The position numbers and the translations under genes were made by a program. The notes under the pieces were generated by a model. That model saw only the letters and a program-made list of their open reading frames with translations, was not told the DNA's origin and made no database searches. A stretch of 34,224 nucleotides of DNA from the NCBI GenBank assembly GCA_025544715.1, contig GCA_025544715.1_4109.4, one strand, 5' to 3'. This document shows positions 5,396-33,078 of the stretch, piece by piece (the first letter of the stretch is position 1; each line of letters begins with the position of its first letter). This DNA is from Escherichia coli (GTDB lineage Bacteria; Pseudomonadota; Gammaproteobacteria; Enterobacterales; Enterobacteriaceae).

Positions 5396-6598
5396 ATGTT
5401 ACCTTTTGGAAGAATGATTAAGTACGCAAATATTGCACCAGGTCCAGAACCTGTAGAGTTCTCAGATGTTTTACAACAACATTATACAAACTGTATGTAT
5501 CTACATAACCCAACTAATACTTTATATGGTTATGGTAGTAATAACATGTATCAATTTGGTCTTGGGAATTCAGCAGCAGTTTCGTCATTTACAGTACTTG
5601 CAAGGAACTGTGCAGCCTTTTGGCTTGGTGTTCAAGGTTCATTGATGATTGATTTGGATAATAAAATATACTACACTGGGTCGGTTGGTGCATTTTCTGA
5701 TTATGGAGATGCAACACCTGTTAATGGTTATTTGACAACATGGACTGATGTTACTGTTGCATTTAATAAAATAGGTGTTATGGCTAATATGATCAAGAGT
5801 GTATATATAGGTGAAAGTACTAGAATATTATTAACCGATGGTAGAGTAATTGCGTGTGGAAGAAATACCAATGGTGAATGTGGCTCTGGTAATAAAAATT
5901 CCATCCCTACACTCACAGTTATGACTAATATGGGTGAAGTTACACATATGGCATGTTCATTACAAGGAACGCACTATATCAAATCAAATAAAGATGCATG
6001 GTTTTGTGGTAAGGATAACTTTGGTGAAAGTGGATGTGGTGGTAGTTCTGTTGTATATTTGAACAAATTCGTGATTAGTAATGTAGAACATATTAGTACT
6101 ACATACGATGTTACATGGTGGTTTACTACTGGTGGGCCTGTATATTATAGCGGGGCTAACAGTACTGGACAAGCGGGTAATGGTACGACTACATCGGTAA
6201 ATCAGCTAACACCAATTAGGAACACATCGGTCACGGTTGATGTAAGTAAGTACAGTACTTTTATTTGTCCAAGTAATATGGGAAATGCATCAATTGGTGC
6301 ACCTATGGCACAATACGCACCATATGTTAGAAGTAGTGGTGCTAACTCATATGGTCAAGAAGGTAATGGAACTAATACATTAGTTAGAACTTGGAATATT
6401 TTTAATCTTAGTGCAATAAGTGGTGGTTATGAAAATGTTCTTATGGCATCTAAAGATTGGAGCAGAACCATAATAATTACTAAAGATTATAAATTATATG
6501 CATGTGGTGGCTGGAATGGAAATGGTGGTAGATTGCCAGATGGCACTTATAGTATTACTACACTAACATTAATGCCAACGCAGTTATGGCAACAATAG
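5396..6598 (+). CDS. leader-tagged RCC1-like beta-propeller protein, 400 aa
   Basis: ATG after AAGGAGG; N-term MLPFGRMIKYAN; repeated GxNxxG(Q/E)xGxG motifs (NGECGSGN, GQAGNGT, GQEGNGT); S/T/N/G/Y-rich. Confidence 0.8.
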   Translation: MLPFGRMIKYANIAPGPEPVEFSDVLQQHYTNCMYLHNPTNTLYGYGSNNMYQFGLGNSAAVSSFTVLARNCAAFWLGVQGSLMIDLDNKIYYTGSVGAFSDYGDATPVNGYLTTWTDVTVAFNKIGVMANMIKSVYIGESTRILLTDGRVIACGRNTNGECGSGNKNSIPTLTVMTNMGEVTHMACSLQGTHYIKSNKDAWFCGKDNFGESGCGGSSVVYLNKFVISNVEHISTTYDVTWWFTTGGPVYYSGANSTGQAGNGTTTSVNQLTPIRNTSVTVDVSKYSTFICPSNMGNASIGAPMAQYAPYVRSSGANSYGQEGNGTNTLVRTWNIFNLSAISGGYENVLMASKDWSRTIIITKDYKLYACGGWNGNGGRLPDGTYSITTLTLMPTQLWQQ

Positions 6599-6606
6599 GA
6601 GGGAAT

Positions 6607-7716
6607 ATGTTACCTTTTGGAAGAATAATTAGGTATGGAAATATTGTCCCTGGTCCTAAAAAAATAATTAAAGTTGGTGCTTCTACCCAAGGCCAATTCT
6701 TATTGACTGATTCACATGATTTATATTACATAGGTAGAAATCAAGGTGGTGAATCTGGAAATGGTAATACCAACACGGTGTCTTCGTGGACATTAGTAAG
6801 TGCAGATGTTTCTAATTTTTTCGTGGGTGATCGTACACTTGTTATTATTAAAAATGATAATACGATATGGACATCAGGTCAAACGTACTGGTTCTCATCT
6901 TCTACAACTACTTCTTACAGTACTGTATTAGTTGAAAGAACTAATTGGTTTACCAATGCTATACCAGTAAGTGAAATTGCTAATATTGTATGTACAAATG
7001 GTTTAATATTTGTACTTAGCACTAATTCAGTACTCTATGGTGCAGGAGATAATGGATATCGTGGTTCTTTGGGTATTGGTTCATCATCAATTTACACATT
7101 AACTCAATGTGCTACGAACGTTCGTAAAGTAATGACCAATGCGAATGATAGTATGTATCTTACATTAGATAATAAGCTATATAGTTCTGGATGGAATAGT
7201 AGTGGGCAGCATGGTACGGGGAACCAAACACAAATTAACACTTGGGGATTGCGTAGTTCTGGTGTAATCGATGCAGCCATTGGTGGTAATGCATTAAATT
7301 ACTATAATGGTACATCATATTTCGTATGTGGTCAAACTCCAAACTTTCTTAGTTCAGGTACGACTACATTCCGTGCAGTTCCTTTAAGTACTTTGCCTAA
7401 TAGTTCTCCGTTGTTTATGACGAATTCACCTGCCTTAAATACTGCTACACAAATGGTAATTACCAGTACATATCAGAAGGGTGTTGGGGCGAACCGTGGT
7501 TTGGGATTAAACAATTCTCAAACTGGTGCTATATATAGTGCTACCAATTTACAATTACCCGTTGAAGTTAGTGAGATTAGGGATGTTCTTTTTAGTGATG
7601 GTTTGACATCGATATTAACCAAAAATGGAGATGTGTATAGTACTGGATCGTATTACGCCATTCCAGGTGCAATCGAGGATGTTGCAGTCTTTACTAAAAT
7701 TGATTTACCAAAATAA
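6607..7716 (+). CDS. leader-tagged RCC1-like beta-propeller protein, 369 aa
   Basis: Track ORF starts upstream; family start MLPFGRIIRYGN is ATG 6607 with SD AGGAGGG overlapping upstream stop; motifs GGESGNGN, GQHGTGN. Confidence 0.8.
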   Translation: MLPFGRIIRYGNIVPGPKKIIKVGASTQGQFLLTDSHDLYYIGRNQGGESGNGNTNTVSSWTLVSADVSNFFVGDRTLVIIKNDNTIWTSGQTYWFSSSTTTSYSTVLVERTNWFTNAIPVSEIANIVCTNGLIFVLSTNSVLYGAGDNGYRGSLGIGSSSIYTLTQCATNVRKVMTNANDSMYLTLDNKLYSSGWNSSGQHGTGNQTQINTWGLRSSGVIDAAIGGNALNYYNGTSYFVCGQTPNFLSSGTTTFRAVPLSTLPNSSPLFMTNSPALNTATQMVITSTYQKGVGANRGLGLNNSQTGAIYSATNLQLPVEVSEIRDVLFSDGLTSILTKNGDVYSTGSYYAIPGAIEDVAVFTKIDLPK

Positions 7717-7722
7717 CATAAT

Positions 7723-7747
7723 GCCAGTACAGAGTACTGGCTTTCTT
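7723..7747 (+). terminator. intrinsic terminator (GCCAGTAC-aga-GTACTGGC plus T-tract)
   Basis: Perfect 8-bp stem, 3-nt loop, followed by TTTCTTATTT; just after the stop at 7714-7716. Confidence 0.65.
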
Positions 7748-7787
7748 ATTTGTATTAAATATAGTATAATGAATAAAGGAGGAATTT
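7748..7787 (+). promoter_or_regulatory. conserved 5' cassette (TATAAT -10-like element, SD AAAGGAGG)
   Basis: TTGTATTAAATATAGTATAATGAATAAAGGAGG repeated almost identically upstream of four other family genes; -35 poorly matched. Confidence 0.4.
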
Positions 7788-18169: not shown

Positions 18170-18198
18170 ATCGTATCTCCGGTGGTGAATATTAAGTT

Positions 18199-18227
18199 AT
18201 AGTACTACACTATGGTAGTACTGTCAA
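18199..18227 (-). promoter_or_regulatory. sigma70-like promoter TTGACA-17-TACTAT with inverted repeat GTAGTACT/AGTACTAC in the spacer
   Basis: Minus-strand read: TTGACA (plus 18222-18227), 17-nt spacer, TACTAT (plus 18199-18204); upstream of the membrane-protein array. Confidence 0.5.
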
Positions 18228-18234
18228 TATTGAA

Positions 18235-19005
18235 TTAAATTTTTTCAAGGAACAAGTTTTCGCACTGTTCTTCCCAATCGTATGGGTTGTTGTTATATAC
18301 TGCCGAAATCAACAGTGGCATACGCAGTGAAGGCGAACGAAGAGAATCTTCGTGCTTCAACATCCAATTCAGAATTGCTTTACTACCATTACGGTTAATA
18401 CCCTTAGATTCTAAAATGTTAGTCTGATTCATCACGTTCTCAATGTGAATCATGATATCGCTTTTGGTCTGAATCTGTAAGTCAACGTATACAGAACGAG
18501 ACATAAGAGCAGCATAGTGAGCAGACATTTTAGTTTTAGCTTTAGAATCTAATGCTAAATCTTTGTTAGTGATGAATACGATACGACCGTTGAAATCAAA
18601 GCTGTTAGGGATACCGTTGGTGCTCAGGTACTTAGAGCTAGTCATATAAGACACGGTACGCTTACCACTATCCAGTACTGCTTTGAGCAGGTTCATACCG
18701 TCTTCAGAATCAAAGATGCTGTCCATATCGTCCAGTACTAACACGTTGGTTCTATGACGATTCTTGTACAGAACTTCGTACAGAGCCAGAGTAGTCATTT
18801 TACCACTGATGGTAGCTACGTTCCATTCTGCTGCGTCATGAGCTTTCTGGAGGCGTTGTGACAGGGTGTAAGTCTTACCAACACCAGGTGCACCGCTGAC
18901 AACCATACTTTTTACAGTACTGCTATCGTCGAGCAAACACTCAAGAGCAACCATCATGGAGTTGAAGTTTTTCTGGATTTGAATGCTACGTGCTTCTCTG
19001 GTCAT
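18235..19005 (-). CDS. P-loop NTPase (Walker A GAPGVGKT, Walker B VLVLDD), 256 aa
   Basis: ATG with SD GAGGAT; Walker motifs read directly; single-gene unit between a cassette and the next promoter. Confidence 0.75.
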   Translation of the reverse strand: MTREARSIQIQKNFNSMMVALECLLDDSSTVKSMVVSGAPGVGKTYTLSQRLQKAHDAAEWNVATISGKMTTLALYEVLYKNRHRTNVLVLDDMDSIFDSEDGMNLLKAVLDSGKRTVSYMTSSKYLSTNGIPNSFDFNGRIVFITNKDLALDSKAKTKMSAHYAALMSRSVYVDLQIQTKSDIMIHIENVMNQTNILESKGINRNGSKAILNWMLKHEDSLRSPSLRMPLLISAVYNNNPYDWEEQCENLFLEKI

Positions 19006-19033
19006 TTCGTTATCCTCATCAGTTGATGAAATA

Positions 19034-19066
19034 ATTATAGCAAAAAGGGCCGACCGAAGTCAACCC
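19034..19066 (-). terminator. bifunctional cassette: UUCG-tetraloop terminator hairpin containing -35 TTGACT, 18-bp spacer, -10 TATAAT
   Basis: Minus RNA GGGUUGAC-UUCG-GUCGGCCC then UUUUU; TTGACT within hairpin, TATAAT 18 nt downstream; folds only in minus sense (G.U pairs). Confidence 0.7.
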
Positions 19067-19081
19067 TTTTTATAAACATAT

Positions 19082-19408
19082 TTAATACACACAATTACCC
19101 ATATCAATATTTTTACCATTATAGGTAATAATATATTTTATCTTATTAGGTTTAATAACAAAAACTTTTAATTTTTGATTCAATTTATCATTTGAAAAAA
19201 TAGTATACGAACCACTTCCATCTTTAAATACTTCTTGACTTTCAAACATAAACTTCTTTCCATCTATTTTTGCTGTTTGTGTTGTTACATCCAAATACAA
19301 ATTGTAGATAGTGTCAGTTTTTGTGGATTTACATGTTGTTGATGCTTCAGTTTTTGCATTCACTGTTGTTGATAAACACATTAACATAACTAACATTAAC
19401 TTTTTCAT
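19082..19408 (-). CDS. small secreted protein (signal peptide), 108 aa
   Basis: ATG with SD GAGG; N-term MKKLMLVMLMCLSTTVNA. Confidence 0.65.
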   Translation of the reverse strand: MKKLMLVMLMCLSTTVNAKTEASTTCKSTKTDTIYNLYLDVTTQTAKIDGKKFMFESQEVFKDGSGSYTIFSNDKLNQKLKVFVIKPNKIKYIITYNGKNIDMGNCVY

Positions 19409-19428
19409 TTTAATTAACCTCTTTTGTT

Positions 19429-20568
19429 TTACAAAATTACTTCACCAAAAATACCATTGATATCACGTTCAATGATGTATTCACCTTCATGTTCAGCTAA
19501 GAACTTTTTAATGGCTTCGTTAACTTTAGGACGATGAATGTTGTTGAATGTTTCAGTGCAACCATCTCCCTTTTCATAATAACCTTTATTATATAGTTTA
19601 CCACATAACGCAATTGTATGTATTATTATTTCCAATTCTCTAGCAAGTTTCCCACCCACATTCTTATGAAATAAAATGGAAATTTCATTACTCCAAAAAT
19701 TATCTACTTTATATATTTTTTTATAAGATAAGTTTTGTGGACTTAATCTTGCTTTAATAGTTTTGTTTGTAATACCAGCTTTATCCGAATTTTTTGCATA
19801 ATCATTGTGAATATAAAATCTTCCAGGCTTGGAAGTTTTAAATCCTGTTACTGCACACGTGGGACAACCAGAACCAGACAGATGTGAATTTGGTGTTTGT
19901 TGAAATTCACCATGTTCTTTGCATATTATAATAGAGGTTACTTGGTTGTTAATGTAGTCATATAAAGAATAATCATACTTATTTCCGTGTATAAGATGTG
20001 ATTTTTTTATAAATTCACCTAAAGTTTGTTTTAAAGTTTGTTTCGTGCATTCTTGACAACCAATTTTACCAGTAGCTAAGTCAGTAATTGTGGGTTTTTT
20101 TATATCACCACAATCATTACATACTACTTCAATTTTAGTTCTACTAGGAAGTGTAGAGTTAAACGAAGTTATTCCACTATAAGTAAATTTATCATAACCA
20201 TATTTTTTGTTGATGACACTAATATGATTAATAGTGTAATATGGAATATTAATAATATTGTAAAAAATCTTACCATTAAATCCCTGCCTAATAAAATTCG
20301 TGCAGGTGGCTCCAATAACTAACATACCATCGTTATTCACTACAAGTTTGGTTTTTGATTTAGATATATAATCTTGTGATCTATTGATATAGAATCCAAG
20401 AACTCTTGGATCATTTATTTCACCCATAATACTAATAGGATCTTGAGCAATGTTGGATTTTTTTACAAAATTTATATCTTCGGCTTTCATCCACTCAAAA
20501 AGCATTCCATGCTCTTCATAAAAATAAACTTTTTCACCATCTTCATTAAAATAGTACTGTTCAAACAT
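19429..20568 (-). CDS. putative nuclease/homing-endonuclease-like protein (zinc-ribbon CxxC pairs plus GIY-YIG-like T5orf172-type segment), 379 aa
   Basis: ATG with SD AAGGAG; CNDCG...CQEC and HGEF...GSGCPTC motifs; FYIHNDYAKNSDKAGITNKTIKARL resembles T5orf172 signature (from memory, not searched). Confidence 0.45.
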   Translation of the reverse strand: MFEQYYFNEDGEKVYFYEEHGMLFEWMKAEDINFVKKSNIAQDPISIMGEINDPRVLGFYINRSQDYISKSKTKLVVNNDGMLVIGATCTNFIRQGFNGKIFYNIINIPYYTINHISVINKKYGYDKFTYSGITSFNSTLPSRTKIEVVCNDCGDIKKPTITDLATGKIGCQECTKQTLKQTLGEFIKKSHLIHGNKYDYSLYDYINNQVTSIIICKEHGEFQQTPNSHLSGSGCPTCAVTGFKTSKPGRFYIHNDYAKNSDKAGITNKTIKARLSPQNLSYKKIYKVDNFWSNEISILFHKNVGGKLARELEIIIHTIALCGKLYNKGYYEKGDGCTETFNNIHRPKVNEAIKKFLAEHEGEYIIERDINGIFGEVIL

Positions 20569-20797
20569 TACTTAAAACTCCTTTCCAGTACTGAACCCGT
20601 CCAGCACCATTAATCTTAGCTTTAATCTTATCTTTTTCGACAAGACCTTCTTTGAAATCGATGGAAGTATTATCGCACTGAATTACATCTAAGTCAAGTA
20701 CTTCTTGTGTACTTAATGAAGTATTATCTGCAATTTGTTGTAAAGTAATTACATCAGTACCGAAGAATTCAGCTAATCGTATAAAAGATAGTTTCAT
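20561..20797 (-). CDS. hypothetical protein, 78 aa
   Basis: ATG with SD AAGGTAA, directly downstream of cassette 20824-20856. Confidence 0.6.
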   Translation of the reverse strand: MKLSFIRLAEFFGTDVITLQQIADNTSLSTQEVLDLDVIQCDNTSIDFKEGLVEKDKIKAKINGAGRVQYWKGVLSNV

Positions 20798-20823
20798 GTA
20801 TTACCTTATATGTTGATGAAATA

Positions 20824-20856
20824 ATTATAGCAAAAAGGGCTGACCGAAGTCAACCC
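20824..20856 (-). terminator. bifunctional terminator/promoter cassette (copy 2)
   Basis: GATGAAATAATTATAGCAAAAAGGGCTGACCGAAGTCAACCCTTT; same architecture as 19034-19066. Confidence 0.7.
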
Positions 20857-20862
20857 TTTATG

Positions 20863-21222: not shown

Positions 21223-21328
21223 GTTGTATTCCTCATTTGGTGATGTACATAATACAGAAAGATAGAACAGGTGTCCATGTTTATATCTAAAATATCCAAA
21301 TACTTTGGTGTAGCAAATACTACATCAA

Positions 21329-21523
21329 CTAATCCTCGCTGAAGACAACAATAAGGAATGACACGAACAATGCCGCATAACAAGGAGCTATCTTCATGTA
21401 CCACGGAACTTCATAATACCATGTACCCAATTCATCCCACGAAAAGATTATACTCACACCGAAGCCGATTAGCGAAAGTACAATGAAAGAAATCCAGAAA
21501 CGCTTTGAATATACTAATAACAT
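21329..21523 (-). CDS. small membrane protein, 64 aa
   Basis: ATG with SD AAGGA; two hydrophobic segments. Confidence 0.5.
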   Translation of the reverse strand: MLLVYSKRFWISFIVLSLIGFGVSIIFSWDELGTWYYEVPWYMKIAPCYAALFVSFLIVVFSED

Positions 21524-21530
21524 GTTATGT

Positions 21531-21560
21531 TCCTTTATGTGACCGAAGTCAATCCTTTCC
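21531..21560 (-). terminator. degenerate partial copy of the terminator/promoter cassette
   Basis: GTGACCGAAGTCAATCC retains the loop and 3' arm only; lies just past the denV stop. Confidence 0.3.
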
Positions 21561-21561
21561 T

Positions 21562-22077
21562 TTAATAATTATTCATTTCATCTTTGATTTGTTCTTCAAT
21601 TTCGTCGAACATATCAGTACTAGATTCGTTCTTACTACTTACGTTCTGCATATCTTTAACGTACTGTGGACATTCAACATCAGTAAACTTATACCACTTA
21701 GGCTTCATCTGGAGCTTCTCAATCAAACGATCACGAGACATTTTAATCTCTGACTCCGATGGTACGTAGTCATTACAAAACTCAGCAGGGAATCCGCTAA
21801 TGTCGTTTACTTCAGTGTTTTGAATCTTCATACCACGACGCAAACATTCGTTAACAATATCAATATGACGCTTCTGTAAGTACAATAACTTGTTGTAGAA
21901 GAATGTTACATGACCTGAACCCAACAGGTAAGTACTGTTAATTTTGAAATCACGTACACGCTTACGTGCTTGAACGTGTTTTTGTACAGCACCAAATACA
22001 CGTGGGAGTTCACGATATTCAGCCATCAGATGTTGGTCAGCAAGTTCTTTAACGTGTACTAAGTTAATGCGTGTCAT
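21562..22077 (-). CDS. denV: endonuclease V (pyrimidine-dimer DNA glycosylase/AP lyase) homolog with about 33-aa acidic C-terminal extension
   Basis: N-term [31 protein letters not shown]...KRVRDFKI...[10 protein letters not shown] matches T4 endonuclease V as recalled; ATG with SD GAGGATG; preceded by cassette. Confidence 0.9.
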
Positions 22078-22105
22078 GTATTCATCCTCTCGTTTCGATG
22101 AAATG

Positions 22106-22138
22106 ATTATAGCAAAAAGGGCCGACTGAAGTCAACCC
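22106..22138 (-). terminator. bifunctional terminator/promoter cassette (copy 3, loop variant CUUC/CTGA)
   Basis: GATGAAATGATTATAGCAAAAAGGGCCGACTGAAGTCAACCC; drives denV. Confidence 0.65.
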
Positions 22139-22144
22139 TTTTCT

Positions 22145-22414
22145 TTATTCAATGATCCCCAACTTAACAATCTCATACCCATCCAAATATCCATATGAAC
22201 ACTCAGGCGTTTCATAGGATGAACCATCATGAATGCCCTGGCATTGACTTTTAGAACGCTCAAGCAATCGTTGCAGTACTGATACGTCCTCAAGAACGTA
22301 ACACAAGGATACATCTGGGTCTTCCACGATACAGTACTCCAATATATCAAAGGTATTAATGAAAATTACAATCTTAGCGAATTGTTTCTTTTCTTTATTA
22401 TACAGTGCGTACAT
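22145..22414 (-). CDS. hypothetical protein, about 89 aa (start moved to internal ATG)
   Basis: Track start is non-ATG; ATG giving MYALYNKEKK has SD GGAGA and abuts the upstream stop at 22416. Confidence 0.5.
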   Translation of the reverse strand: MYALYNKEKKQFAKIVIFINTFDILEYCIVEDPDVSLCYVLEDVSVLQRLLERSKSQCQGIHDGSSYETPECSYGYLDGYEIVKLGIIE

Positions 22415-23829: not shown

Positions 23830-23876
23830 GGTAGTTCCTCGATTGTAGGGATGAGAAGTTCATCCCCTTGATAAGC

Positions 23877-23904
23877 ATTATACAGTACTGAATGTGTTTG
23901 TCAA
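23877..23904 (-). promoter_or_regulatory. sigma70-like promoter TTGACA-16-TATAAT with CAGTACTG box abutting the -10
   Basis: Minus-strand read: TTGACA (plus 23899-23904), 16-nt spacer ending in CAGTACTG, TATAAT (plus 23877-23882); hairpin GGGATGA..TCATCCC follows at about 23848-23868. Confidence 0.55.
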
Positions 23905-23905
23905 T

Positions 23906-25873: not shown

Positions 25874-26287
25874 TTATCCTTTTACACAATTTGACATAAT
25901 GTAAACACGTTTAATAAAAGAACTTTCATACACGTACTTCAACTTGCCATTCTCACGTAAGCGGTGGAAAACATCACCTTTGTTGGTACTCCACGTGGAA
26001 CCAGTACTGACATCTACATTAGCCATTGACCCACTGGTTACATTAATACCATACTTAAAACTAAAAGTTTCTCCGTCTTCAACTAATGTCACAGGCGTGC
26101 TACGTTCATATTCAAATACAAGTTTAGAACCAATCATCTCATATGATTTCAATTTACACTTCATTACACCCATTTCATCTTGAGTGGGTAGATTTCTTTC
26201 AAATATATCAGAAACTTCGTTTGCAGAAGCAAATGAACTCATGGTCATTAATACAATACCAGTTACAATTAAAATAATATTTTTCAT
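25874..26287 (-). CDS. secreted protein (signal peptide), 137 aa; paralog of 27056..27475
   Basis: N-term MKNIILIVTGIVLMTMSSFASA; shared motifs FSFKYG, LKYVYES, C-terminal NC(V)K. Confidence 0.65.
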   Translation of the reverse strand: MKNIILIVTGIVLMTMSSFASANEVSDIFERNLPTQDEMGVMKCKLKSYEMIGSKLVFEYERSTPVTLVEDGETFSFKYGINVTSGSMANVDVSTGSTWSTNKGDVFHRLRENGKLKYVYESSFIKRVYIMSNCVKG

Positions 26288-26344
26288 GATAGGTTTATCT
26301 CTTTGTTTACGGTTTATTAAGAATACATCAGAACATCAGTTCTG

Positions 26345-26986
26345 TCAATAAAAAACTGGATCTTCTTCAGTAATTGGTATTTCTCTACGCACATCACACG
26401 AAAGAGGATCAGTAATGAATACATTCCCATCTTTATCCATCATTACATTACTTGAATGAATGTCTGGTACAAATCGCCCGTGAAACTCTTTCATGATGTT
26501 AGCTGCGACCGTTGCAATTGCAATCTCTTCAGAATTTCCACGCATATCATTCACTGAAGTTGCGTACTGACCAGCATGTGCATACGAATACAAATCACCA
26601 ATTTTAGTACTAACAAAGTCATCATAATTATTTTTTTGTTTAATTATAGGATAGTACTTGTCCATCTCATACCATCCAAAGTTTCCTTGTTCGTTGGCAC
26701 TGTAGATCACTGGAAGAAACTTGGTTCCTGCGTTTTCAATGCAGTACTTTGCATAAGCACGAAAACCATCCCAGCGGGAAGTGGTTACTTTAAATGCACG
26801 TCCAGGATAGTTTTTATGTTCAACTACTACAGAGTACATCCCCATTCCAAGCAAAGTAAGTCCAGCAGCTTTAACTTGTGGAAAGATTACGCGTTCAGCA
26901 TAAGGAATATCAAACTCCATCGCACAACGAGTTTTTGATGGACGCAAAATGTCAATTAAAGTTTTGAATATTTCTTGCTTAGTCAT
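26345..26986 (-). CDS. protein-kinase-like protein, about 213 aa (start moved to internal ATG)
   Basis: Track start ATGATG lies inside the promoter -10; ATG 26984-26986 has SD AGAGGAT; motifs LLGMGMYSVV, AFKV, PDIHSSNVMMDKDGNVFITDP. Confidence 0.55.
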   Translation of the reverse strand: MTKQEIFKTLIDILRPSKTRCAMEFDIPYAERVIFPQVKAAGLTLLGMGMYSVVVEHKNYPGRAFKVTTSRWDGFRAYAKYCIENAGTKFLPVIYSANEQGNFGWYEMDKYYPIIKQKNNYDDFVSTKIGDLYSYAHAGQYATSVNDMRGNSEEIAIATVAANIMKEFHGRFVPDIHSSNVMMDKDGNVFITDPLSCDVRREIPITEEDPVFY

Positions 26987-27014
26987 TACTTTATCCTCTG
27001 TAGTTAATATCAAC

Positions 27015-27047
27015 ATCATAACAAAAAAGGCTGACCGAAGTCAACCC
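27015..27047 (-). terminator. bifunctional terminator/promoter cassette (copy 4; -10 TATGAT)
   Basis: AAAAAAGGCTGACCGAAGTCAACCCTTTT; TTGACT in hairpin, TATGAT about 18 nt downstream. Confidence 0.65.
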
Positions 27048-27055
27048 TTTTATTA

Positions 27056-28064: not shown

Positions 28065-28105
28065 TGTAATCCTCTTCTTAATTCCTCTTTTGTATTTACA
28101 AAAAA

Positions 28106-28125
28106 AGGCTGACCGAAGTCAACCT
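28106..28125 (-). terminator. terminator/promoter cassette (copy 5), hairpin core
   Basis: AGGCTGACCGAAGTCAACCTT; the downstream -10 is less clear (TAAATA-like). Confidence 0.55.
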
Positions 28126-28134
28126 TTAGTTTTA

Positions 28135-29412
28135 TCATTTACCGTATTTGCTCATGATGTCTTTTTCCCAGGTAGTTACATTTCCATTTTCGTAATCACG
28201 GAAAGAGTCATCAAGTGTAGTCAATGCATAATCATATGCCTCACCGGATTCAACATCAATATCAACAGCACCATTCACTACATCAGTCCACGCTTTTTGT
28301 AGTTTACGAGCGTTGTTACCAACTTTATCTTTAATCCAACTAAGATTTCGGTTTATACTCTTCTTATCAGCACCAGCTTTTTCACCAACATCTGCAACCC
28401 ACTGCATTAATTTCTGTAGTTCGTTATGGGATTTTTCAGTCATTTGGCGGTCTTGTGACAGTTCAGCTTCCATGTCATCAATTTCTTCGTCTGAATGAAC
28501 ATCGTTCTGTTCTACTGCACCTTCTTCATCATCACGCATCAGATAACCATCTCGTGTAACCTTCTCACCGTGATCAGCTTCATACTTTTTCATAGTATTG
28601 AATGCAGCATCCATTGCAGTTACAAAACGACTCTTTTCACCTTGTACATAAGATTTAAGTGCATCGTTAACTGCATCAGATACTAATTTAATCTTATCGT
28701 CTTTACCTTCCAGACGGTTTTCTAACTTAGCTAGTACATTCTTAACTTGTTGAGCATTAGCACGGTCTTCTTTACCAATACTATCAAATGTTTTAAGTAC
28801 TCTTTCAAGACTTACTTCCTCTTGTGCAGGCACATCACCTGGTGGCGTACCTTCAAGTGCACGCATTATAGTACTGAATACTTCAGTTGGTTCAGTACTG
28901 GTATTTCCACTCATTGCATCAAGTACAGCTTGTGCTTTGACTTTTAATTCTTCTTTAGGTACAGATTGTAATTCTTTCACAATACCTTGGATAAGTTGTG
29001 GTTTATTAGCAAAAATCTTACCTAACTTATCAGACAATTCTTTGACAGGGTTAACCGCCTTTGGTGCTTCTTGTTTTGGTTCTTCTTTCGCAGGAGAAGA
29101 CTTTTCTTTTTCTTCACGTTCCATATCAGCTAGACGTTGTTTTTGTGTAGCATTAAGAAGTCCCAATGAATTAACGTAACGTAGTTTTTCTAGCTCAGTC
29201 ATGTTCTCAGTACTCTTAACTTCACCTGCTTCTGCGTTTGCTTTACCAGCTAGACCAGTTCCTTGGTTACGTGATCCACGTGAACCTTGACCTGCTTGAT
29301 AACTATTTGGTCGGCGGTTGCGTTCACTCCATTTATCCGAGTGACCAGCCATGTTACCACCATTTTTATCAGTAAAATTACTTGGCATTTGATTTCTCTC
29401 CATAGATTTCAT
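28135..29412 (-). CDS. hypothetical charged protein, 425 aa; shares N-terminal domain with 29658..30041
   Basis: ATG verified; shared motifs YVNSLGLL and KELQSVPKEELKVKA. Confidence 0.7.
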   Translation of the reverse strand: MKSMERNQMPSNFTDKNGGNMAGHSDKWSERNRRPNSYQAGQGSRGSRNQGTGLAGKANAEAGEVKSTENMTELEKLRYVNSLGLLNATQKQRLADMEREEKEKSSPAKEEPKQEAPKAVNPVKELSDKLGKIFANKPQLIQGIVKELQSVPKEELKVKAQAVLDAMSGNTSTEPTEVFSTIMRALEGTPPGDVPAQEEVSLERVLKTFDSIGKEDRANAQQVKNVLAKLENRLEGKDDKIKLVSDAVNDALKSYVQGEKSRFVTAMDAAFNTMKKYEADHGEKVTRDGYLMRDDEEGAVEQNDVHSDEEIDDMEAELSQDRQMTEKSHNELQKLMQWVADVGEKAGADKKSINRNLSWIKDKVGNNARKLQKAWTDVVNGAVDIDVESGEAYDYALTTLDDSFRDYENGNVTTWEKDIMSKYGK

Positions 29413-29435
29413 TTTTTCTCTATGTCTATATTTAT

Positions 29436-29469
29436 AGTATAAAGAAAAGGCTGACCGAAGTCAACCTTA
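29436..29469 (-). terminator. bifunctional terminator/promoter cassette (copy 6; -10 TATACT)
   Basis: AAGGCTGACCGAAGTCAACCTT; TTGACT-17-TATACT. Confidence 0.6.
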
Positions 29470-29474
29470 TTTTG

Positions 29475-29588
29475 TTACTTAGATTGTTCTAGTGCAGGTG
29501 GATTTACTTTTTGATCCACTACATAGAATACACCACCAACCAGTACTGCGGCGATGAGTGCAGCAACTACAAATTTCAAACCTTGCAT
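29475..29588 (-). CDS. 37-aa single-helix membrane micro-protein, own transcription unit
   Basis: Hand-translated MQGLKFVVAALIAAVLVGGVFYVVDQKVNPPALEQSK; bracketed by cassette copies 6 and 7. Confidence 0.4.
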   Translation of the reverse strand: MQGLKFVVAALIAAVLVGGVFYVVDQKVNPPALEQSK

Positions 29589-29617
29589 ATATGATACCTC
29601 AGATATATTGAGAAGTT

Positions 29618-29650
29618 ATGATACAACAAAGGGCTGACCTTAGTCAACCC
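29618..29650 (-). terminator. bifunctional terminator/promoter cassette (copy 7, loop UAAG; -10 TATCAT)
   Basis: GGGCTGACCTTAGTCAACCC immediately after the stop of 29658..30041; TTGACT-18-TATCAT. Confidence 0.6.
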
Positions 29651-29657
29651 CTTTTTA

Positions 29658-30041
29658 TTACTTCTTGAACTTATGTTTTTCACTTTCGATTGCATTCACG
29701 ATTTCATCATGAATTTTACGAAGATTGTGAGTTTTCTTGAGAGAATCATGCAATGCACGGAATGCAGAGTGTACTGTTGCTTTAAAGTGCTCTTTAGGAG
29801 TTACTTTAAGTTTCTCGATAATATCACGTACATAGATTGGGTGATCCTCAAACACACGATTAAGCTCATGACCTAGTGATTCTAGGCTAAATGCTTTTTC
29901 ACGGGATGGACGATCATGTGCAAGACTTTGGTCTGGTTTTAGAAGACCTAGTGAATCTAGATACTTGTGCTTATGTGCATTGTCTAGACCAGAAATATCA
30001 ACATCATGGGATGGATCTTTCTTATTCCATTTATCAACCAT
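29658..30041 (-). CDS. hypothetical protein, 127 aa; shares domain with 28135..29412
   Basis: ATG with SD GGAG; motifs YLDSLGLL and EKLKVTPKEHFKA; TATAAATA-like sequence about 35 nt upstream. Confidence 0.65.
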   Translation of the reverse strand: MVDKWNKKDPSHDVDISGLDNAHKHKYLDSLGLLKPDQSLAHDRPSREKAFSLESLGHELNRVFEDHPIYVRDIIEKLKVTPKEHFKATVHSAFRALHDSLKKTHNLRKIHDEIVNAIESEKHKFKK

Positions 30042-30157
30042 TTTTATAACTCCTATAAGAGATAAATTTTTACTATAATATTTATAGTTCCTTTGTCATT
30101 TATATCGAATGACATAAAACATTATATCATAATAAGAATGGTTGTCCCAAAGTTAAA

Positions 30158-32832: not shown

Positions 32833-32860
32833 AATTAAAATCCTCTAATGTATTAATAGA

Positions 32861-32894
32861 ATTATAACAAAAAAGGCTGACCGAAGTCAACCTT
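32861..32894 (-). terminator. bifunctional terminator/promoter cassette (copy 8; -10 TATAAT)
   Basis: AAAAAAGGCTGACCGAAGTCAACCTTTG; stop codon of the upstream gene lies inside the 3' arm. Confidence 0.65.
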
Positions 32895-33078
32895 TGTTTT
32901 GAAGTTCTTGAACCAATTGTCGTACTTCGTTAATATTTTTACACTGCTTTACAGTGAAGTAATCATACTTACGACCATAGGTTCTTGGGTCATCACCTTC
33001 CATATACTGCTGCACATCAAAGATTTGTAAGTAGGGATGCTGCATAACACGAATATTATCACTTTGATAAATCAACAT
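32887..33078 (-). CDS. hypothetical small protein, about 63 aa (start moved to internal ATG)
   Basis: ATG giving MLIYQSDNIRV has SD AAGGAT after upstream stop 33083; track start would overlap by 50 nt. Confidence 0.5.
   Translation of the reverse strand: MLIYQSDNIRVMQHPYLQIFDVQQYMEGDDPRTYGRKYDYFTVKQCKNINEVRQLVQELQNKG

Follow-up and report, generated by a model that had tools for sequence, protein, structure and literature searches.

A repeated cassette with the layout of promoter-coupled terminators in a gene block of an Asteriusvirus jumbo coliphage

Elements that join a transcription terminator to the promoter of the next gene have been described in T4-type phages and in bacteria. The PeSLs of phages RB49 and phi1, reported by Arbiol et al. 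(2010; PMC2839356), are repeated near-consensus sigma-70 promoters combined with a stem-loop and lie in hyperplastic regions; lacZ fusions demonstrated both promoter and terminator activity, one of the five subclasses has the stem-loop overlapping the −35 hexamer, and a role in modular shuffling and the formation of mini-circles was described. Comeau et al. (2014; PMC4122927) extended PeSLs to T4/PST and to KVP40/nt-1, where the stem consensus is A3-4 G3-loop-C3 T3-4, and reported degraded "half" PeSLs. In A. baumannii, E. coli and B. subtilis, promoter-coupled terminators were described by Fletcher, ..., Grainger (bioRxiv 10.64898/2026.08.19.745784, preprint of August 2026): the DNA of the stem-loop also supplies the −35, the −10 is immediately preceded by the T-tract, which assists the promoter, and transcripts end no more than 35 bp, usually ~10 bp, before a start site on the same strand. 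Mutations in vitro and in vivo showed the dual function, the coupled promoter raising termination through its proximity; phages and PeSLs are not mentioned in that preprint. Here we analyse a stretch of 34,224 nucleotides (the window; contig GCA_025544715.1_4109.4, deposited under Escherichia coli) that carries repeated cassettes of 45–60 bp in an early-gene region, each with a hairpin and all but one with promoter hexamers interlocked with it. Judging from sequence and predicted folding, these are likely to be PeSL-type promoter-coupled intrinsic terminators in an early hyperplastic block of an Asteriusvirus jumbo phage.

A megablast search assigned the window to Asteriusvirus, that is, to the jumbo coliphages of ~350 kb resembling 121Q, PBECO4, G17 and UB. 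Its relatives are 93–97% identical to the window and each covers at most 82% of the stretch; the incomplete coverage by any one of them indicates that the region is mosaic. The closest relatives are classified as Asteriusvirus without a family and outside Straboviridae, and the paper on phage CBB (PMC5259590) found the clade to be a distant relative of the T4-like phages in portal and capsid trees. Pattern searches of the window that allowed mismatches to the minus-sense element, AAAGGGTTGACTTCGGTCAGCCCTTTTTGCTATAAT, located eight full copies and one truncated copy, listed here with their predicted signals (SD, Shine–Dalgarno sequence):

19027–19071, minus strand: cassette 1; hairpin 19047–19066 (GGGTTGAC-TTCG-GTCGGCCC), −35 TTGACT 19058–19063, T-tract and TG, −10 TATAAT 19034–19039, predicted start ~19027; downstream, on the minus strand, an SD and then the ATG of an AAA-ATPase-like gene, 18235–19005
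20817–20859, minus strand: cassette 2; hairpin 20837–20856, −35 20848–20853, −10 TATAAT 20824–20829 with TG, predicted start ~20817
22099–22143, minus strand: cassette 3, upstream of denV; hairpin 22119–22138 with loop TTCA, −35 22130–22135, −10 TATAAT 22106–22111 with TG, predicted start ~22099
27008–27051, minus strand: cassette 4, upstream of a protein-kinase-like gene; hairpin 27028–27047, −35 27039–27044, −10 TATGAT 27015–27020 with TG
28099–28128, minus strand: cassette 5; hairpin 28106–28125 and a seven-T run, no TAnnnT at 17–18 nt (TAAATA); by its appearance a terminator only
29429–29469, minus strand: cassette 6; hairpin 29448–29467, −35 29459–29464, 17-nt spacer, −10 TATACT 29436–29441; overlaps a TATAAATA motif at 29429–29436
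29611–29655, minus strand: cassette 7; hairpin 29631–29650 with loop TAAG, −35 29642–29647, −10 TATCAT 29618–29623
32854–32896, minus strand: cassette 8; hairpin 32874–32893, −35 32885–32890, −10 TATAAT 32861–32866 with TG, predicted start ~32854
21537–21552, minus strand: truncated copy, TTGACTTCGGTCACAT, between denV and the next small open reading frame (ORF)

The first-pass annotation of this DNA had reported a cassette repeated nine times. The repeat is real: dinucleotide-preserving shuffles gave a mean of 0.00–0.08 cassette matches and none reached the observed count. The nine copies are, however, eight full and one truncated, and seven have the complete terminator-plus-promoter layout. 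All share one orientation, the sense of the minus-strand genes that occupy 14.7–34.2 kb of the window, and they are confined to 19–33 kb of this block, which consists mostly of small ORFs without Pfam hits. Every full copy sits in intergenic, A/T-rich DNA near the stop codon of the upstream gene, and the order of upstream stop codon, cassette, and SD and ATG of the next gene holds in 8/8, bearing out the proposed position of the hairpin ahead of SD and ATG. Similarly, the −35 said to lie within the stem is found in all eight, where TTGACT makes up the 5′ stem arm and the first base of the loop, while the TATAAT-like hexamer said to follow 17–18 nt later is present in seven: a TAnnnT lies 18 nt after TTGACT (17 nt at 29448) everywhere except in copy 28106. 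The −10 is TATAAT in four of the seven and TATGAT, TATACT or TATCAT in the others, TG occupies −15/−14 in five, and the 17- to 18-nt spacer is composed of the 3′ arm and the T-tract. In a promoter scan the seven copies scored 10–11 of 12 matches over the −35 and −10. The copies at 19047, 20837 and 22119 are 78–86% identical to one another over 63 nt, against 51–70% to the other copies, and adjacent copies have up to 47 identical bases in common; this greater likeness of neighbours fits local exchange. The partial copy that had been noticed near 21535 was located at 21537–21552. It retains the 5′ arm, the loop and GTCA but has neither the 3′ arm with its clamp nor a T-tract nor a −10, and it fails to fold (−3.2 kcal/mol, z = −0.6). 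The gene denV (21562–22077), a pyrimidine-dimer glycosylase (Pfam Pyr_excise, E = 4e-15), occupies a unit of its own between cassette 22119 and this remnant, in agreement with the short transcription units that had been proposed.

We computed RNA folding energies for each of the eight full copies, as the first-pass annotation had suggested. When flanking sequence is included, folding energies are −12.4 to −18.7 kcal/mol (z = −4.5 to −6.6) for the minus-sense RNA and −7.7 to −16.8 kcal/mol for the plus-sense RNA; for the 20-nt core alone the ranges are −11.0 to −12.8 and −5.1 to −7.5 kcal/mol. The coding-sense hairpin is thus about twice as stable, owing to one or two U·G pairs and the C(UUCG)G loop, but the antisense strand also folds and is trailed by T-rich sequence, and the statement that the element folds only in the minus sense was too strong. 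Each full copy combines an 8-bp stem containing 4–6 G–C pairs, a 4-nt loop and 6–7 T in the next 8 nt, and hence the G+C-rich stem of at least 5 bp, short loop and immediate U-rich tract by which intrinsic terminators are recognised. The database record of phage G17 gives an independent terminator call: it has three features labelled "putative transcriptional terminator, -17.0, ARNOLD", whose positions are exactly those of the hairpins at 19047, 20837 and 22119. A consensus terminator scan picked up three of the eight copies, a yield that we believe to be an artefact, the stem having been extended through A/T pairs and T counted only beyond them, rather than evidence against termination. No family was matched in an Rfam search of the window and six related loci at gathering thresholds, so the cassette is not a known structured RNA.

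The promoter half was assessed by comparison across phage and bacterial DNA. Every occurrence of TTGACnnnnGTCRR in the window and 54 fetched phage loci was extracted, giving 130 distinct contexts. In 105 of these a TAnnnT hexamer begins 23 or 24 nt past the first T of TTGAC, and any other offset accounts for at most 9, in a sample whose loci were retrieved with the TTGAC hairpin as seed and in which the −35 is therefore fixed by design. Of 106 composite copies, 58 have an 18-nt spacer and 48 a 17-nt one; 84 (79%) have TG before the −10 and 66 (62%) a UUCG loop, and A is enriched and conserved where transcription is predicted to start. Covariation is seen in the outer stem pairs (GGG/CCC in 77, AGG/CCT in 13, TGG/CCA in 2 and GGA/TCC in 2). 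TG is of no use for termination and covariation of no use for a promoter, which argues that both functions have left their mark on the sequence.

A sequence-blind scan for terminator-like hairpins in the same phage DNA found a −10-like hexamer after 90 of the 104 hairpins with TTGAC in the 5′ arm, compared with 36 of the 124 without it (29%; odds ratio 15.7, Fisher p = 3e-19). In 596 Gb of bacterial genomes the exact 18-mer occurred 50 times. About half of these were chance matches within G+C-rich genes and ~21 were plain terminators consisting of A-tract, hairpin and T-tract, from Acinetobacter, Vibrio, Exiguobacterium and Bacteroidetes, of which 2/21 (~10%) had a phased −10. The two contrasts indicate that coupling is no automatic product of the hairpin or of AT-rich flanks. 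Predicted terminator–promoter coupling is instead a characteristic of the phage copies, involving about 80–87% of this hairpin family in phage DNA against ~10% in bacteria. Phasing, TG, covariation, the association with TTGAC, the bacterial contrast and the ARNOLD features of G17 all support the proposal that termination and re-initiation are packed into one element.

The imperfection of the palindrome is itself conserved. IMG/VR holds the wobble form GGTTGACTTCGGTCRGCC in 44 loci and the perfect palindrome GGTTGACTTCGGTCAACC in 5; among the composite copies the 3′ arm is AG in 85, AA in 12 and GG in 9, and 89% have the U·G wobble. Such a pair would hold the T of the −35 on the coding strand, and on the opposite strand it would turn TTGAC into CTGAC and weaken the hairpin, making the element directional. 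We infer that the wobble may reflect selection for a one-way element. The counterpart of copy 28106 in 121Q is a perfect palindrome, likewise without a −10. That the only promoter-less copy of the window should be a perfect palindrome in 121Q is a single anecdote, in line with the idea of directionality.

Several mosaic boundaries coincide with the cassettes. Local BLAST of the window against five relatives gave 21 breakpoint clusters in the minus-strand block, and four of them (19069/70, 20812, 22144–53 and 29621) fall in the cassette footprint, which makes up 2.9% of the DNA (binomial P = 0.003); the null here is uniform although breakpoints generally favour intergenic DNA, so the statistic is modest and supportive only. 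The homology of four relatives stops at 19069/19070, in cassette 1. Phage SP27 has a single hybrid cassette that aligns to window positions 19022–19069 and 20812–20859, with upstream sequence as at cassette 20837 and downstream sequence as at cassette 19047; homology resumes at 20812, and the alignment places the crossover within the 47 nt that the two cassettes share. What lies between them is the following:

19070–20859, minus strand: module of 1,790 bp with three ORFs (19082–19408, 19429–20568 and 20561–20797), bounded by cassettes 1 and 2 and absent from SP27

SP27 and the window differ here by one clean 1,790-bp indel between two cassette copies. The slot adjoining cassette 19047 holds a RaK2_00499-like gene in G17, a homing endonuclease in SHEFM2K, a UvrC-like gene in phAPEC6 and nothing in SP27; in the window it encodes a 379-aa protein with a weak Pfam match to a treble-clef zinc finger. 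Three relatives have breakpoints at 22144–22153, abutting cassette 22119, where UB carries an inserted HNH endonuclease gene. Also in UB, 29399–29620 is replaced by a 774-bp gene that has a cassette on its upstream side only, homology resuming at 29621, and in SHEFM2K and phAPEC6 the region 21283–21673 around the truncated copy is replaced. Other breakpoints lie away from cassettes (20471–20580, 21282/21674, 25892/26306 and others). A clean 413-bp insertion at 25893–26305, with an ORF at 25874–26287 (137 aa, no Pfam hit), has no cassette at either border; it is shared by the window and SHEFM2K and absent from G17, UB, SP27, phAPEC6 and 121Q, and shows that not every indel in the block is cassette-linked. 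The cassettes are one contributor to the mosaicism and not the whole story.

The element is widespread among phages. A 52-nt cassette used as BLAST query matched 179 phage records, the largest groups being phages of Vibrio (48), Escherichia (35), Aeromonas (23), Klebsiella (13), Pectobacterium (10) and Cronobacter (10). It is present in the undoubted T4-type Straboviridae KVP40, as AAAAAGGGTTGACTACGGTCAGCCCTTTCTTGTATTAT, and Aeromonas phage 65, in Cronobacter phage CR3 (Vequintavirinae) and in the RaK2-like jumbo phages K64-1, CBB, GAP32 and fHe-Yen9-04. Brochothrix phage A9 (Herelleviridae), whose host is Gram-positive, has two exact copies, followed by TGTTATTAT and an SD of Gram-positive type. 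Common to phages of these unrelated families is a near-identical core of ~45 bp, AAAGGGTTGAC-UUCG-GTCAGCCC-TTTT-TGn-TAnnAT. Asteriusvirus genomes contain about 6–10 copies; in 121Q, seven of eight pattern matches lie at 98.7–112.7 kb, within 14 kb of a 348.5-kb genome. Outside phages, the identical hairpin GGTTGACTTCGGTCAGCC with A- and T-tract flanks looks like an ordinary intrinsic terminator in genomes of Acinetobacter (eight at species level), Vibrio, Exiguobacterium, Neobacillus and Bacteroidetes, the Acinetobacter copies seemingly representing one conserved locus.

These observations suggest how a cassette may work. Sequence and folding predict that polymerase arriving from the upstream gene transcribes GGGUUGAC-UUCG-GUCAGCCC and then UUUUUGCU; the 8-bp stem closed by C(UUCG)G, with its U-tract, would act as an intrinsic terminator, with release expected ~7–9 nt past the stem. 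The comparisons strongly support that the same duplex DNA would serve as a sigma-70-type promoter, with −35 TTGACT, a spacer of 17–18 bp, a TG-extended −10 and TATAAT. Initiation is predicted 7 nt after the −10 and thus ~11–13 bp beyond the termination point, producing a leader of 20–30 nt with GAGG before the ATG. By analogy with bacterial experiments on the same geometry, polymerase at the coupled promoter would probably boost termination by blocking the incoming polymerase and the T-tract would aid the promoter, insulating each gene or small gene group from its neighbours. Finally, the comparison with relatives shows that neighbouring copies, with up to 47 identical bases in common, serve as crossover points.

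Several points weigh against this account, beyond the seeded sample and the uniform breakpoint null noted above. Two of the seven promoter-bearing copies lack TG and the 18-bp spacer is one longer than optimal; copy 28106, with TAAATA where a −10 is expected, has no usable −10 and illustrates that the hairpin can stand as a terminator alone. Most variable segments meet a cassette at one side only, and several involve homing-endonuclease-like genes with a mobility of their own. The phages encode an RpoD-like sigma factor of their own, and the form of polymerase that uses the promoters might be the one that carries it; our literature search found no RNA-end mapping, reporter or in-vitro transcription results for any Asteriusvirus. 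The simplest alternative would make all cassettes what copy 28106 and its 121Q counterpart, both without a −10, appear to be, namely terminators only, with TTGACT and TATAAT-like hexamers arising as chance by-products of AT-rich intergenic DNA. The same hairpin is indeed a plain terminator in Acinetobacter, Vibrio, Exiguobacterium and Bacteroidetes, database records annotate the sites solely as terminators, and a regional promoter scan gave 85 sigma-70-like sites compared with 85.9 in shuffles. A −10 placed precisely 17–18 nt away in 105 of the 130 phage copies, TG that has no use in a terminator, the much rarer −10 near other hairpins of the same loci and near bacterial copies, and the conserved A at the predicted start site nevertheless make this explanation very unlikely. 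Even less plausible, in our view, is that the inverted repeat is mainly a DNA operator, on which a dimeric phage or host protein would shut off early promoters while the RNA hairpin is incidental. A palindrome across the −35 is the classic repressor layout, yet the imperfection conserved as a U·G wobble matters only for RNA, the frequent UUCG loop stabilises RNA, the outer stem covaries instead of keeping a fixed sequence, a T-tract always follows, and the element is common to bacteria and to phages with unrelated proteomes. Phasing, TG, wobble and covariation led us to reject both the terminator-only and the operator explanation. A different question is whether the promoters, if real, are read by polymerase carrying the phage RpoD-like sigma factor, or by an otherwise phage-modified polymerase, and not by unmodified host sigma-70, in which case they would define a delayed gene class and not an immediate-early one. 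A gene of the RpoD family lies ~6–7 kb past the right end of the window, on the same strand as the cassette block, in UB, SHEFM2K, SP27 and phAPEC6, and the same sigma gene was noted in the putative early region of CBB (PMC5259590). We regard this as unlikely: the hexamers, with TG, are near the host consensus, phages from other families share the cassette (KVP40, Aeromonas phage 65, Cronobacter CR3 and Brochothrix A9), and the PeSL promoters of RB49/phi1 were active in uninfected E. coli (PMC2839356).

The recombination data and the phage distribution lend themselves to two further explanations. The cassettes could be primarily recombination or mobility sites comparable to integron attC sites or miniature inverted-repeat transposable elements (MITEs), with secondary regulatory signals and an active, possibly site-specific exchange. 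This would agree with the SP27 crossover inside a cassette, the enrichment of breakpoints at cassettes, the different gene that each relative has in the slot beside cassette 1, the PeSL mini-circles detected in RB49/phi1 (Arbiol 2010, PMC2839356) and the near-identical cassettes in several phage families. However, only one of the variable segments examined is cassette-bounded on both sides, the others having one boundary in or beside ordinary genes, and many of the variable genes are homing-endonuclease-like and mobile without a cassette. An identity of 47 bp is enough for ordinary homologous recombination, and the conserved −35, TG, −10, stem covariation and T-tract are requirements of transcription signals; we therefore think a primary role in mobility improbable. 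A MITE-like mobile element was rejected outright, as the copies always occupy the same intergenic functional slot and show no target duplications or independent insertions. Broader still is the idea that the cassette is a horizontally exchanged universal adaptor, whose homology moves accessory-gene modules between unrelated large virulent phages in a pan-phage exchange of gene cassettes; on this view the U·G wobble would not only confer directionality but also testify to common descent. We consider this doubtful; the −35, the UUCG loop, the GGG/CCC clamp and the T-tract leave so little sequence freedom that convergence suffices to explain the spread. Promoter-coupled termination thus stays our preferred interpretation of the cassettes.

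Some neighbouring genes and signals deserve mention. The ATG of the longest ORF of the protein-kinase-like gene, at 27019, falls inside the −10 TATGAT of cassette 27028; the ATG at 26986, preceded by GAGG and in agreement with a 642-bp gene annotated in relatives, is probably the true start. Between cassettes 29631 and 29448 the sole coding sequence is a 37-aa hydrophobic ORF at 29475–29588 on the minus strand, MQGLKFVVAALIAAVLVGGVFYVVDQKVNPPALEQSK, which would form a single-gene unit for a probable small membrane peptide and in place of which UB has the 774-bp gene. The T4-type late-promoter motif TATAAATA occurs twice in the window, compared with 8.3 occurrences expected from shuffles. Both copies, 29429–29436 and 30079–30086, are intergenic on the minus, coding strand and lie just upstream of 28135–29412 and 29658–30041, two genes annotated as virion structural proteins in relatives. 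As the first copy directly adjoins the −10 of cassette 29448, early and late promoters may both be present there; at the equivalent site UB has ATATAAATA and no cassette.

Two other composites of promoter and stem-loop, unrelated in sequence, are found at 18170–18234 and 23830–23905 on the minus strand, one of them combining a perfect TTGACA-16-TATAAT with a GGGGATGA...TCATCCC hairpin downstream, in the leader. On the plus strand, 5396–14704 is a tandem array of about eight paralogous genes of ~400 aa, which are annotated in relatives as RCC1-like "regulator of chromosome condensation" or "putative DNA condensation" and whose copy number varies between relatives. In other regions of jumbo phages, the cassette or another sigma-70-like promoter is followed not by SD and ATG but by a conserved stretch, approximately CATTGGCAGATA..CTAACCCAYAGGGTGCGGAG..TATCTAT, and then AGTACT-rich sequence. 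We found 27 distinct instances, some in convergent pairs, in our loci L006, L015 (121Q, ~143–153 kb), L019 and L041 (both CBB), L023, L024, L032, L038 and L047. The stretch looks like a multi-copy small RNA gene; it had no Rfam match and is absent from the window.

The terminator–promoter layout was already known from the PeSLs of T4-type phages and from the promoter-coupled terminators of bacteria, and the novelty implied by the first-pass annotation is unsupported. For the 121Q/PBECO4/RaK2-like phages the literature yielded only separate MEME and ARNold predictions (CBB, PA5oct) and neither a composite element nor a PeSL; a full-text search for TTGACTTCGGTC returned only unrelated primer sequences, and Nolan 2006 and the rV5 paper describe no −35 inside a stem. 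New here are the occurrence in a phage group for which we found no such description, a clean example of recombination and a quantified contrast between phages and bacteria. Current understanding is not overturned, and the practical uses are several. In genomes of Asteriusvirus and related jumbo phages the cassettes offer annotators cheap and specific markers of early transcription units and of probable joints of recombination; database records show these sites as terminators only or not at all. The SP27 junction illustrates clean gain or loss of a module via a regulatory repeat and carries the PeSL concept outside the T4 family. The promoter-coupled terminator described in bacteria seems to have become a standard part in phages, and the high share of coupled copies in phage DNA makes infection a convenient setting for testing whether termination is strengthened by a bound polymerase. 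For synthetic biology, the element offers a natural insulator of 45 bp.

Set against the known systems, the cassette resembles PeSLs most closely. Both combine a sigma-70-like promoter with a terminator or attenuator stem-loop, both are concentrated in hyperplastic regions among small genes whose function is unknown, and both mark places where close relatives differ by insertions, deletions or replacements; the promoter boxes, the stem-loop over the −35, the placement between stop codon and SD, the hyperplastic region and the coincidence with indels are all found here. The cassette fits the nt-1/KVP40 stem consensus, KVP40 carries the cassette sequence itself, and the truncated copy resembles the "half PeSL" remnants (Comeau 2014). 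The setting differs, being an Asteriusvirus jumbo myovirus of ~350 kb outside Straboviridae in which one sub-architecture dominates, whereas RB49/phi1 have several stem positions and G-run/C-run stems, and in which about 7–10 copies per genome lie within ~14 kb, compared with ~50 per RB49/phi1 genome. The reporter and mini-circle evidence belongs to the RB49/phi1 PeSLs, while the Asteriusvirus copies are known from sequence. With the bacterial promoter-coupled terminators the cassette shares its geometry, with the −35 in the stem-loop, the T-tract before the −10, a position between tandem genes and often an upstream A-tract, and the distance from termination to start is ~10 bp in bacteria and predicted to be ~11–13 bp here. 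The bacterial elements are individual, diverse sequences that constitute ~11% of mapped A. baumannii terminators, in contrast to one repeated family marking recombination boundaries. Canonical E. coli intrinsic terminators have a G+C-rich stem and a U-rich tract, and extended −10 sigma-70 promoters a TTGACT-like −35 and TGnTATAAT. Unlike these, the terminator and promoter of the cassette overlap fully, which doubly constrains the bases from the stem to the −10, and its hairpin is identical in many unrelated phages. As in the morons of lambdoid phages (PMC2839356, PMC1524935), accessory genes here form self-contained transcription units; moron signals have no conserved repeats and are not thought to mediate exchange, whereas in the Asteriusvirus block a single cassette would be both the terminator of one unit and the promoter of the next.

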